This document shows, one piece after another, positions 27,051-31,463 of a stretch of DNA of 47,986 nt. Numbering within the stretch: position 1 is the stretch's first letter; each line of letters starts with the position of its first letter. The stretch comes from Candidatus Aenigmatarchaeota archaeon (GTDB lineage: Archaea > Aenigmatarchaeota > Aenigmatarchaeia > PWEA01), in NCBI GenBank assembly GCA_003555465.1, contig PWIB01000046.1:1-47986 (forward strand). The letters are read 5' to 3'. Made by a program: the position numbers and the translations under genes. The notes beneath the pieces were generated by a model. The model saw only the letters and a program-made list of their open reading frames with translations, did no database searches and was not told the DNA's origin.

Positions 27051-27818
27051 GTGGTAAGAAGGCAGGCGGACTTCCCATCACAAGGGGAGCTAGTTATCGG
27101 TACAGTAAAGGAAATAAATCCTAATTCTGTTTTCGTGGAGCTTGAGGAATACGAAAAGGAAGGCATGATCCACATATCAGAAATTGCAAAGAAGTGGGTC
27201 CGTGATATAAGGGACTGGGTCTCGGTCGATGAAAAGATTGTCTGTAGAGTCAAGGAGGTAAGAGAGAAGAAGGACCAGATAGATCTCTCCCTCAAAGAGG
27301 TAAGTGACAGAGACAAGAACAGAAGGATGCAAACATGGAAAAGAGATGAAAGGGGTGAGGAATTTCTTGAGAGTCTCGCAGAGGACAACGATCTTTCACT
27401 TGATGAAGCCTACGATAAAATTGGCTACGAGCTTCAGGAAAACTTCAAGGATATGCTGGAGCCCTTTGAAATAGCTGTCAGGAAAGGTGAAGAAGAGCTT
27501 CAAAAGAGAGGGTTAGAAGAAGACTGGACAGGCGAAATAAAGCAAGTCGGCGAAGAGAACATAAGACGTAAGAAGAAGGAGCTTACGGAAAGATTCAATC
27601 TGAAAGTACCTGAGCCCAAAGGTGTGGAAATTATAAAGGAAGCTCTCAACAAGGTTATGGATTCCCAGGGTGTAGAGTTCAGGTATATCTCTGCCCCGGA
27701 GTACGAGATAAAGAAGGAGGCACGGGACCTCAAGGAGGCCGAGAAGTCCATTGAAAGGTCCATTGAAGAGTTAGAGGAGGAGCTACAGGGAAATGACTTT
27801 GAGCTCCAGAAGTTATAG
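27051..27818 (+). CDS. eif2a: translation initiation factor aIF2 alpha
   Basis: The S1 domain reads GELVIGTVKEINPNSVFVELEEYEKEGMIHISEIAKKWVRDIRD. GTG start follows the SD AGGTGA. Confidence 0.9.
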   Translation: MVRRQADFPSQGELVIGTVKEINPNSVFVELEEYEKEGMIHISEIAKKWVRDIRDWVSVDEKIVCRVKEVREKKDQIDLSLKEVSDRDKNRRMQTWKRDERGEEFLESLAEDNDLSLDEAYDKIGYELQENFKDMLEPFEIAVRKGEEELQKRGLEEDWTGEIKQVGEENIRRKKKELTERFNLKVPEPKGVEIIKEALNKVMDSQGVEFRYISAPEYEIKKEARDLKEAEKSIERSIEELEEELQGNDFELQKL

Positions 27819-27922
27819 TGGTTAATATACTGACTGAAATATTTCTAGGAAAACTTGTTTCCATAAATATGTTTTCTTCCACAAAAAAGCTTAAATAGAA
27901 AGGAGACTATTCCTTGTCTGAG

Positions 27923-27938
27923 TCCCCACATGTAGTGG
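27923..27938. promoter_or_regulatory. NrdR-box-like site 1
   Basis: TCCCCACATGTAGTGG contains the palindromic arms CCCAC/GTGGG. It shares the 9-mer ACATGTAGT with site 2 and matches the recalled NrdR consensus acaCwAtATaTwGtgt at about 10 of 16 positions. Confidence 0.5.
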
Positions 27939-27942
27939 GTTC

Positions 27943-27950
27943 TTTAAATT
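27943..27950 (+). promoter_or_regulatory. TATA box of the nrdR-nrdD-nrdG operon
   Basis: TTTAAATT lies between the two NrdR-box-like sites, about 55 nt upstream of the nrdR ATG. Confidence 0.5.
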
Positions 27951-27954
27951 GAAG

Positions 27955-27970
27955 CCACAACATGTAGTAG
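27955..27970. promoter_or_regulatory. NrdR-box-like site 2
   Basis: CCACAACATGTAGTAG is offset exactly 32 bp from site 1 and overlaps the expected transcription start. Confidence 0.5.
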
Positions 27971-28001
27971 TCACAGACCAATAGTAAAAGGGAATGATAA
28001 G

Positions 28002-28442
28002 ATGAAATGTCCAACATGCTCATCCGAAACCAGGGTTCTCGAATCCCGTGATATTTCTGACTCCACAGCCATAAGGAGAAGGAGAGAGTGTAAGGACTGT
28101 GAGCATAGATTTACAACATACGAGAGGCCGGAACTTTCAGTGAGAGTAGTGAAGAAGGACGGTACCAGAGAAGAGTTCGACCAGGACAAGCTCAAGAAGG
28201 GAATAATGAAGTCCTGTGAGAAGAGGCCTGTAAGCAATGAGGACGTAGAAGAATTGATAAGGAATGTCGTCAAGAAGATAAGGAGGAAGGGCATCAACGA
28301 AATCGATTCAACAGAGATAGGCAGCCTGGTTATGGAGGAGCTAAAGGATCTGGACAAGGTGGCTTACATACGTTTCGCTTCGGTTTACAAATCTTTCGAT
28401 CTCGAAAGCTTAGAAAAAGAAATAAAAACAATCAAAAGGTGA
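28002..28442 (+). CDS. nrdR: NrdR transcriptional repressor (Zn ribbon plus ATP-cone)
   Basis: MKCPTCSSETRVLESRD...RRRRECKDCEHRFTTYE is the canonical NrdR N-terminus. An ATP-cone follows. Confidence 0.9.
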   Translation: MKCPTCSSETRVLESRDISDSTAIRRRRECKDCEHRFTTYERPELSVRVVKKDGTREEFDQDKLKKGIMKSCEKRPVSNEDVEELIRNVVKKIRRKGINEIDSTEIGSLVMEELKDLDKVAYIRFASVYKSFDLESLEKEIKTIKR

Positions 28443-28447
28443 TTCCA

Positions 28448-30583
28448 ATGAGTTTTGAAGCTATCAAAAAACGTGACGGTACCATTGAAAAATTCGACAA
28501 AAGCAAGATAACAAATGCGATATGGGAGGCTGCGCAGGCAGTTGGTGGTACAAACAAGGATCTCTCCAAAAAGCTTTCAGATGAAGTAGTTGAAAGACTG
28601 GAAAAGGAGCTTGGTGAAAATGAAATTCCTACCGTCGAGCAGGTACAGGACAATGTAGAGAAAACTCTCGTAGAAAACGGCCACTACAAGACAGGTAAGG
28701 CATATATTCTATACAGAAGCCAGCATGAAGAGCTCAGGAAGTTCCATGAGCTTATGAGCAACGTTTCTCTAGTAGAAAACTACGTAAAGGAAAACGACTG
28801 GCGAGTAAAGGAAAATTCAAACATGAGCTATTCACTACAGGGCCTGAACGTCCATGTAACAGACAAGATAATCAGAAAGTACTGGTTGCAGAAGATCTAC
28901 CCGCCTGAAGTAAGGAAGAGGCACAACGAAGGTTTCTTCCATATCCATGATCTAGGAACATTAGGCCCTTACTGTGTAGGATGGGACATAAAGGACCTTT
29001 TAGTTAATGGTTTCAAAGGCGTCAGGGGAAAGATAGAGTCAAAACCTGCTAGCCATTTCGACGTAGCTCTACTGCAGCTGGTTAACTTCCTTTACACTTT
29101 ACAGGGTGAAGCTGCAGGTGCACAGGCAGTGTCGAACTTCGACACATACTTCGCTCCTTTCATACACTACGATGATCTCAGCTACGATGAAGTAAAGCAG
29201 GCTATGCAGAAGTTTCTGTACAATATGAACGTTCCTACAAGGGTAGGCTTCCAGACTCCTTTCACAAACCTTACGATGGATCTAGAAGTTCCTGAAATGA
29301 TGGAGGACGAGCCTGTCATAATAGGCGGGGAGCAGAAGGACAAGACATACGGTGAGTTCCAGGAAGAGATGGATATGCTGAACAGAGCCTTCGCCGAAGT
29401 CATGATGGAAGGAGACGCAAAAGGAAGGCCTTTTACCTTCCCGATACCGACCTACAACATAACAAACGACTTCGACTGGGACAATGAGGTCCTCGACCCG
29501 GTCTGGAAGATGACAGCAAAGTATGGAATACCTTACTTCTCAAACTTCGTTAACTCAGACATGAGCCCTGACGACGCCAGATCCATGTGCTGCAGACTGA
29601 GACTGGACAACAGAGAGCTGAAGAAGAGGGGAGGTGGACTGTTTGGATCAAATCCACTCACAGGATCAATTGGTGTAGTAACGATGAACCTCCCAAGGAT
29701 GGCTTACCTATCCGAGGACGAGGACGAGTTCTTCGAGATGTTGGGAGAGCACATGAAGCTAGGAAAGGACAGCCTTGTACTCAAGAGAGAAGTCCTTGAG
29801 AAGTTCACCGAAAAGGGACTTTATCCCTACTCCAAGTTCTACCTTAGAAACATAAAGGATTCACAGGGCTCCTACTGGGAAAACCACTTCTCTACAATAG
29901 GACTAATAGGGATGAACGAGGCAGCACTGAACCTCAAGGACGCTTCAATAAGCACAGAGGAAGGCCACGACTTCGCTGAAAGAGTCCTCGAGTTCATGAG
30001 GGAGAAGATAGCAGACTTCCAGGAGGAAACAGGTTCTATATTCAACCTGGAGGCGACCCCTGCAGAAGGTTCAAGCTACAGGTTAGCTAGAAACGACAAG
30101 AAGGAATTCCCTGATATGAAGGTCTACAACACCTCGGAACTTGGTGACTCCGAACCGATCTATACGAACTCCACGCAGCTCCCGTTCGGAGAAACAGAAG
30201 ACCTGTTCGAAGCGCTGGACCACCAGGAACCTCTTCAAACGAAGTACACCGGAGGTACGGTTTTCCACGCATGGCTAGGTGAGAAGATGCCTTCCATCGA
30301 GTCGACGAAGAAGCTAGTCAAAAAGATATCCGAAGACTACAGTCTTCCGTACTACACGCTAACACCGAGCTTCTCTGTCTGTCCAACACACGGCTACCTT
30401 TCCGGAGAAAAGGAGGTCTGCCCCAAATGTAAGAAGGAGGGAGAAAGGACCAAGTGTGAAGTGTACTCCAGGGTAGTCGGCTACCTTAGACCGAAGGAAC
30501 AGTGGAATCCAGGAAAGCAGGAGGAGTTCGAAGACAGATCAGACTACTCAAAGGAAGTAACTCCTGAGGCCGAGGTTTCCTGA
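28448..30583 (+). CDS. nrdD: anaerobic ribonucleoside-triphosphate reductase (class III)
   Basis: N-terminal ATP-cone (IKKRDGTIEKFDKSKI), active-site SMCCRL, C-terminal Zn site CPTHGY...CPKC, and glycyl-radical motif RVVGYL. The ATG at 28448 follows SD AGGTGAT, so the GTG at 28439 is less likely. Confidence 0.92.
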   Translation: MSFEAIKKRDGTIEKFDKSKITNAIWEAAQAVGGTNKDLSKKLSDEVVERLEKELGENEIPTVEQVQDNVEKTLVENGHYKTGKAYILYRSQHEELRKFHELMSNVSLVENYVKENDWRVKENSNMSYSLQGLNVHVTDKIIRKYWLQKIYPPEVRKRHNEGFFHIHDLGTLGPYCVGWDIKDLLVNGFKGVRGKIESKPASHFDVALLQLVNFLYTLQGEAAGAQAVSNFDTYFAPFIHYDDLSYDEVKQAMQKFLYNMNVPTRVGFQTPFTNLTMDLEVPEMMEDEPVIIGGEQKDKTYGEFQEEMDMLNRAFAEVMMEGDAKGRPFTFPIPTYNITNDFDWDNEVLDPVWKMTAKYGIPYFSNFVNSDMSPDDARSMCCRLRLDNRELKKRGGGLFGSNPLTGSIGVVTMNLPRMAYLSEDEDEFFEMLGEHMKLGKDSLVLKREVLEKFTEKGLYPYSKFYLRNIKDSQGSYWENHFSTIGLIGMNEAALNLKDASISTEEGHDFAERVLEFMREKIADFQEETGSIFNLEATPAEGSSYRLARNDKKEFPDMKVYNTSELGDSEPIYTNSTQLPFGETEDLFEALDHQEPLQTKYTGGTVFHAWLGEKMPSIESTKKLVKKISEDYSLPYYTLTPSFSVCPTHGYLSGEKEVCPKCKKEGERTKCEVYSRVVGYLRPKEQWNPGKQEEFEDRSDYSKEVTPEAEVS

Positions 30584-31269
30584 TGAAAATAGGCGGGCTA
30601 CAGAAGTTCACAGTCACGGACTATCCGGGCAAGATATCCTGTATAGTCTTCACCATAGGCTGTAACTTCCGCTGTCCCTTTTGTCAGAACAGCCAGCTCG
30701 TCACAGAAGAAGCAAGTCAAATGCCTTCCGAAAAGGTGTTTGAGTTCCTCGAGAAGAGGAAGGACCAGCTCGAAGGCGTTACAGTCACGGGAGGTGAGCC
30801 ACTGATACAGAACGGCTTCTTCGATTTTCTGGAGAAGGTCAAGGGACTGGGCTACGACATCAAGCTTGACACAAATGGAAGTGTACCAGGTGAGCTGAAG
30901 AGGGTAGTAAGGAAAGGGCTCGTGGACTACGTCGCCATGGACATAAAGGCACCTGTCCGGGAGTACGAAAAGGCCTGTGGCGTAAAGGTCAACAGAGACA
31001 AGATAGAAGAAAGCATTGATTATATCCTAGGCATGGATTCATACGAGTTCAGGACTACAGCTGTCCCTACTATCATCGATGAAAAGGCAATAGACCAGAT
31101 AGCGAAGAGGATAGAAGGTGCTGAGAAGTTCTACATACAACAGTTCGAAACGAAGAACACCCTGGACAAGGACTACAGCGACCTCGAAAGCTTTCCTGAA
31201 AAGAAGCTTAAGAAGTTCAAGGAGATAGCAGAAAGGTACGTACAGAGCTGTGAAGTGAGAAACGTGTGA
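30583..31269 (+). CDS. nrdG: anaerobic RNR activating radical-SAM enzyme
   Basis: CNFRCPFCQN cluster and GVTVTGGEPL. It overlaps the nrdD stop by 1 nt. Confidence 0.88.
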   Translation: MKIGGLQKFTVTDYPGKISCIVFTIGCNFRCPFCQNSQLVTEEASQMPSEKVFEFLEKRKDQLEGVTVTGGEPLIQNGFFDFLEKVKGLGYDIKLDTNGSVPGELKRVVRKGLVDYVAMDIKAPVREYEKACGVKVNRDKIEESIDYILGMDSYEFRTTAVPTIIDEKAIDQIAKRIEGAEKFYIQQFETKNTLDKDYSDLESFPEKKLKKFKEIAERYVQSCEVRNV

Positions 31270-31271
31270 AG

Positions 31272-31280
31272 ATTTAAATT
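31272..31280 (+). promoter_or_regulatory. TATA box for nop10 (leaderless geometry)
   Basis: ATTTAAATT is centred about 28 nt upstream of the ATG at 31305. Confidence 0.5.
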
Positions 31281-31304
31281 CTTTCGCACAGAAAGCTACC
31301 TGGT

Positions 31305-31463
31305 ATGAAGCTAAAGAAGTGCAGGAACTGTGGAATTTACACCTTAGGATCAAAATGCAAAAAGTGCGACGAAGACACCTCGGAGCCACGACCAGGCCCG
31401 TTTTCACCTGAAGATAAGCACGGAAAACACAGAAGGAAGGAAAAGCTTAAAAAGGAAGGATAA
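31305..31463 (+). CDS. nop10: H/ACA RNP protein Nop10 (52 aa), below the ORF-track cut-off
   Basis: Manual translation gives MKLKKCRNCGIYTLGSKCKKCDEDTSEPRPGPFSPEDKHGKHRRKEKLKKEG. The Zn ribbon plus the P-x-FSPEDK-x-G-x-x-RR signature is typical of Nop10. Confidence 0.85.
   Translation: MKLKKCRNCGIYTLGSKCKKCDEDTSEPRPGPFSPEDKHGKHRRKEKLKKEG

Follow-up and report, generated by a model that had tools for sequence, protein, structure and literature searches.

Two 16-bp sites located upstream of the nrdR-nrdD-nrdG genes of a Candidatus Aenigmatarchaeota archaeon are, judging from their sequence, the probable operator of NrdR, the repressor whose gene comes first in this set. The host belongs to the DPANN archaea and its assembly amounts to 632 kb, with a completeness of approximately 90%. 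The sites were found in contig PWIB01000046.1 (hereafter the window, i.e. the whole stretch of 47,986 nucleotides that was analysed), in the intergenic region 27819-28001 that separates the gene of aIF2-alpha (27051-27818) from nrdR-nrdD-nrdG. NrdR is well studied in bacteria. It has been reported in 22% of archaeal genomes (PMC13584703) and is described as controlling ribonucleotide reductase (RNR) genes in 'some archaea' (PMC9110341; PMC13584703). Our search of the literature yielded no archaeal study of NrdR, whether experimental or at the level of promoters, and nothing relevant on NrdR in connection with either DPANN or an archaeal TATA box. The locus described here, together with its relatives, places the operator relative to the archaeal BRE and TATA elements. 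The corresponding features are collected in Table 1.

Table 1. Features of the nrdR-nrdD-nrdG locus (positions in the window) and two NrdR-reductase fusions of related genomes (positions in their own loci).
Feature	Position	Strand	Description
Core promoter P1 (predicted)	27883-27897	+	A-rich BRE AAAAAAG (27883-27889) and TATA box CTTAAATA (27890-27897)
P1 transcription start (putative)	27918-27922	+	28-32 nt from 27890; T27919/G27920 pyrimidine/purine step
NrdR box 1 (predicted), TCCCCACATGTAGTGG	27923-27938	.	15.7 bits; 6/6 conserved positions; kept in relatives
Linker, 16 bp	27939-27954	.	contains TTTAAATT (27943-27950); sequence varies within the genus
NrdR box 2 (predicted), CCACAACATGTAGTAG	27955-27970	.	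16.8 bits; 6/6 positions; almost invariant in the genus
Rest of 5' leader (putative)	27971-28001	+	block TCACAGACCAATAGTAAAAGGG (27971-27992); Shine-Dalgarno-like GGGAATGAT (27990-27998)
nrdR, 146 aa	28002-28442	+	Zn_ribbon_NrdR PF22811 (5.6e-17), ATP-cone PF03477 (6.4e-25)
nrdD, class III ribonucleotide reductase	28448-30583	+	Pfam NRDD (1.2e-198) and ATP-cone
nrdG, radical-SAM activase	30583-31269	+	Pfam Radical_SAM and Fer4_12
L118 fusion, 820 aa	L118:442-2901	-	Zn_ribbon_NrdR, two ATP-cones, NRDD
L119 fusion, 903 aa	L119:301-3009	+	Zn_ribbon_NrdR, one ATP-cone, class II RNR

A mutational study by the Sjöberg group has defined the NrdR operator as two partially palindromic 16-bp boxes separated by a linker of 15-16 bp, which sets the box centres 31-32 bp apart. 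Within each box there is strong conservation at six positions (C4, A6, A8, T9, T11 and G13), C4 and G13 being critical, and the published minimum for the A/T content between these two positions is 63% (PMC13584703). All these published sequence features were found in both boxes of the present locus. Direct reading of the sequence gives an offset of 32 bp from box 1 to box 2. The six conserved positions are all present in each box, in the register of the original prediction, and the segment between C4 and G13 has five A/T out of eight in box 1, exactly at the 63% limit, and six out of eight in box 2. Both boxes precede nrdR-nrdD-nrdG, at a distance of 32-79 nt, and the genome has a cognate nrdR. 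The two boxes have in common the 9-mer ACATGTAGT, which occurs nowhere else in the window (0.11 occurrences expected). Coordinates, spacing and shared 9-mer are therefore as originally proposed, and the arrangement is the canonical tandem of NrdR operators.

Could such a resemblance be fortuitous? A symmetric matrix was built from the ten verified boxes of Escherichia coli and Streptomyces coelicolor only (Table 1 of PMC13584703), and the whole 632-kb genome was scanned with it, using as background 30 genomes simulated with a first-order Markov model. Boxes 2 and 1, in this order, are the best single sites genome-wide, the third reaching 13.0 bits. One box alone is unremarkable because the best single site of the simulated genomes averages 15.2 bits, and a single box of 15-17 bits is expected once in a genome of this size. 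This is the argument in favour of chance, and it does not extend to the pair: its score, 32.5 bits, is twice that of the runner-up pair of the genome (16.2 bits), while the best pairs of the simulated genomes have a mean of 15.6 bits (standard deviation 2.2) and a maximum of 20.9 bits. The pair thus stands about 7.7 standard deviations over the simulated maxima; it is also placed directly upstream of nrdR, and is kept across the phylum. Chance resemblance is effectively refuted by the simulation, and the distinctness from background expected by the original prediction is borne out. Within the 632-kb genome no further candidate NrdR target pair exceeds 16.2 bits, and the sequence is consistent with a canonical NrdR regulon made of a single operon, on an archaeal promoter.

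Two sites considered as a possible third box were rejected. TCCATAAATATGTTTT (27860-27875) is weak, has a non-canonical spacing of 63 bp and is kept only among close species. The same is true of AGACTATTCCTTGTCT (27904-27919), with 6.8 bits and a spacing of 19 bp. This latter site is flanked by the TATA box on one side and by box 1, only 3 bp away, on the other, and it has C4, A6, T11 and G13; it recurs in four close relatives and is missing in more distant ones.

The genes downstream of the boxes are tightly coupled. The open frame of nrdD begins at a GTG (28439), its probable start being the ATG at 28448, behind the Shine-Dalgarno sequence GGTGAT, and the start of nrdG overlaps the stop of nrdD by 1 nt (junction TGATG). 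Because nrdR, nrdD and nrdG follow the boxes in this way, autoregulation of the three genes would be the natural reading of the sequence, as first suggested. This nrdD is the only RNR gene found in the assembly, where class I and class II enzymes were searched for and none was found. The NrdR protein itself matches the solved structures of its E. coli (E = 2.6e-39) and S. coelicolor (E = 2.9e-31) counterparts, and it retains both CxxC pairs, the RRRR motif and the base-contacting Arg.

Judged by sequence, the closest known system is the autoregulated nrdRJ operon of S. coelicolor. There too, nrdR comes first in an RNR operon, two 16-bp boxes are found upstream with a linker of 15-16 bp, and the repressor likewise combines a zinc ribbon with an ATP-cone. 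Box 1 of nrdRJ, TCCCCACATCTAGTGG, is the site present in the cryo-EM NrdR-DNA complex (PDB 7P3F series; PMC9110341), and it is identical to box 1 of the archaeon at 15 of its 16 bases. There are also differences: the archaeal boxes are associated with a BRE/TATA promoter and the TBP, TFB and RNA polymerase (RNAP) machinery, and the reductase is of class III (nrdDG) and not of class II. The repressors differ at one base-contacting position. In S. coelicolor, Asp15 contacts conserved G-C pairs of the box (PMC9110341), whereas the archaeal protein has a Glu, E14 (28041-28043), at the place of this base-contacting Asp, within the family motif VLESR; a Glu is present at this position in one other family (VIETR), while Asp is found in the rest of the archaeal and bacterial sequences examined. 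The substitution counts against the explanation favoured below. In E. coli, the box pairs of nrdAB, nrdDG and nrdHIEF share the same consensus and linker length (PMC12176259; PMC13584703). The functional pair of nrdAB is located downstream of the core promoter (PMC12176259), similar to the geometry proposed below. By contrast, E. coli nrdR is encoded elsewhere and controls three operons, while in the archaeon a single operon would be controlled, comprising the repressor's own gene.

The place of the promoter was the weak point of the original prediction, which took TTTAAATT, in the linker, as the only TATA-like element, and supposed that NrdR on the two bracketing boxes occluded TBP and TFB. 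This geometry is probably wrong. A promoter motif, caaaAnaTTTAAATA, was derived from 375 upstream regions of the host genome, and its best BRE/TATA match in the intergenic region is acaaaaaagCTTAAATA (27881-27897), which scores 7.1 and comprises CTTAAATA with its A-rich BRE. The linker element has a full score of only 3.9, because it has no BRE flank, even though its core score is comparable to that of P1 (9.9 vs. 9.3). Conservation points in the same direction. All eight members of the genus and family have kept the P1 BRE/TATA, 33-34 bp before the start of box 1, and in the alignment of the eight sequences the BRE/TATA, both boxes and the block that follows box 2 are conserved while the linker is variable. 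TTTAAATT is found in this genome only, with a degraded form in the closest relative, and it is missing in six of the eight family members despite their conserved boxes and P1. Box 1 begins 25 bp past the end of the conserved TATA box; the pair encloses only the non-conserved linker element. It is most likely the conserved BRE/TATA (27883-27897) that acts as promoter.

To locate the start of transcription we used a calibration internal to the genome. Distances counted from the TATA box's first base to the start codon become abruptly frequent at 28-32 nt, with a mode at 30, the pattern expected for leaderless genes. Applied to position 27890, this calibration places the P1 start at about 27918-27922, at the upstream edge of box 1. 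It implies an 82-nt leader, unusually long in a genome where most TATA-to-ATG distances fall within 28-68 nt. The linker element, 59 nt from the ATG, is at a common distance, the second common distance class of the genome. This, together with its core score, gives some credit to the idea that the promoter, or a second, species-specific one (P2), is TTTAAATT itself, with a start at about 27973, NrdR on the flanking boxes bending the DNA and occluding TBP and TFB. TATA-like words are also present in the linkers of a few other loci (L015, L010 and L012), and the identical octamer is found downstream of the operon: a small gene after nrdG, apparently nop10, has it 33 nt before its ATG at 31306 (31272-31308), a spacing that fits a leaderless transcript, so that the octamer probably works as a TATA box there. 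We find this alternative unlikely, however. Besides the missing BRE flank and the absence from most family members, the linker is in any case rich in A/T, and bacterial NrdR binds irrespective of its sequence (PMC13584703); furthermore, the best TATA box is upstream of box 1 in 39 of 42 loci of the phylum, in which a box-TATA-box layout was to be looked for according to the original prediction.

This wider comparison involved 201 sampled genomes of Aenigmatarchaeota, among which NrdR was detected in 104. With a threshold of at least 20 bits and an offset of 30-33 bp, box pairs were found upstream of 38 of 49 nrdR loci across the phylum, and the presence of boxes before orthologous operons is thereby confirmed; by sample, they were seen in 15 of the 20 loci of the class sample and in 23 of 30 further loci. 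The sites of many relatives are textbook boxes, such as ACACAATATATTGTGT. A control inspired by phylogenetic profiling considered nrdD loci of genomes lacking a detected NrdR: seven such loci, from five genomes of the same class, have no pair of this strength, their best scores ranging from -7.6 to 6.2 bits. Two of the genomes where no NrdR was found (G011 and G018, L122-L127) have two nrdD paralogues each, with frames of approximately 680-700 aa and 790 aa, and no NrdR boxes were found upstream of either paralogue. Throughout the phylum the best TATA-like element precedes the start of box 1 by 13-34 bp; it outscores the linker in 17 of 19 and in 22 of 23 loci. The operator is thus downstream of the TATA box both here and across the phylum, and with the predicted start it would cover the start site. 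In a phylogenetic tree of NrdR, 49 archaeal sequences and their 30 closest bacterial counterparts split at one branch (support 93/69), the tree being unrooted and the bacterial sample biased; with this single-branch split, there is no sign of repeated recent transfer in this bacterial sample.

It could be argued that the palindromes of the boxes work as hairpins of the RNA leader, or that they bind a regulator other than NrdR. A 5-bp hairpin is indeed possible in box 1, and the leader of this genome, taken alone, folds somewhat better than shuffled sequences (z = -2.4). Yet, a conserved RNA structure is not supported in the leader: the consensus fold over eight relatives reaches -2.5 kcal/mol and involves the box 1 palindrome only, with a positive, hence unfavourable, covariation term. 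In addition, an RNA role leaves unexplained why the exact NrdR consensus positions are present, why the boxes are phased at 31-32 bp and why they co-occur with nrdR. We deem it highly improbable. Two other conserved segments flank the promoter and the boxes. Immediately behind box 2, the leader carries the block TCACAGACCAATAGTAAAAGGG, which hardly varies among members of the genus (GTYACAGGTYRATAGTAAAA) and is unique in the genome. Just upstream of the BRE, conservation of the block AAAACTTGTTTCCATAAATATGTTTTC (27850-27876) extends over the genus and, in part, to the sister genus; this block might represent either the T-rich region where the aIF2-alpha gene terminates, or an upstream element. 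The two blocks were considered as a recurring regulatory motif and rejected, each being unique in the genome.

Returning to the NrdR operator with P1 as its promoter, the explanation which we regard as the best, and as likely, combines the operator, this promoter, a block of RNAP and an autoregulatory loop. By homology with the S. coelicolor and E. coli proteins, an NrdR tetramer loaded with dATP and ATP would bind both boxes simultaneously; the boxes are three helical turns apart. Transcription would start near 27920 from the P1 BRE/TATA. Since the boxes are downstream of this conserved element and the linker TATA is not conserved, bound NrdR would most likely occupy the segment from about +3 to +51. 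With NrdR on the boxes, binding of TBP and TFB would still be possible. The position of the boxes, at and after the predicted start, argues for exclusion of RNAP or for a block in early elongation: recruitment of the polymerase, formation of the open complex or early elongation would be impeded, and it is probably RNAP, not the TATA-binding factors, that is blocked. With plentiful dATP, nrdR-nrdD-nrdG would be shut off, closing a negative autoregulatory loop.

There are archaeal precedents for this type of control. MDR1 in Archaeoglobus, as well as LrpA and Phr in Pyrococcus, have their binding sites downstream of the TATA box and prevent RNAP from being recruited. As with these regulators, the operator of the present locus is downstream of BRE/TATA, over what would be the start site, so that binding of TBP and TFB is possible. 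However, they belong to unrelated families (DtxR, Lrp and wHTH), and the mechanism proposed for NrdR is deduced from the position of its boxes.

A further feature of the relatives is the association of NrdR with the reductase within a same polypeptide. Among the 104 genomes with NrdR, approximately 20 have the zinc ribbon of this protein inside an open frame of 536-1635 aa. Seven of these long frames were translated and four were completed to stop codons. In-frame NrdR-reductase fusions appear to be present in L118, L119, L120 and L121, and also in L092, L095, L105, L107, L112, L114 and L115. One type associates Zn_ribbon_NrdR, two ATP-cones and NRDD in 820-858 aa; another associates Zn_ribbon_NrdR, one ATP-cone and a class II RNR in 903 aa. 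Of the four fusions of full length, three are preceded by canonical box pairs of 26-31 bits, and the fusion enzyme may repress its own gene. A literature search on NrdR-RNR fusions yielded no paper.

Considering the phylum as a whole, we lean, if only slightly, towards the view that NrdR has long been resident in Aenigmatarchaeota and was fitted there in one way, with BRE/TATA always upstream and exclusion or stalling of the polymerase after binding of TBP and TFB; in some lineages it has fused to the reductase, which would then repress its own gene. Box 1 would occupy the stretch that begins shortly after the TATA box and reaches into the first 20 transcribed bases, with box 2 in the leader. 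From the standpoint of annotation, the locus would be an ordinary bacterial-type feedback switch, with a canonical one-operon NrdR regulon. What it offers is a concrete, testable prediction of the way in which sensing of dATP and ATP would be linked to transcription in an archaeon of reduced DPANN genome, whose sole RNR depends on it. If this phylum-wide view is true, it would provide a clean nucleotide-switchable system to study how a repressor of bacterial type affects the initiation machinery of archaea.
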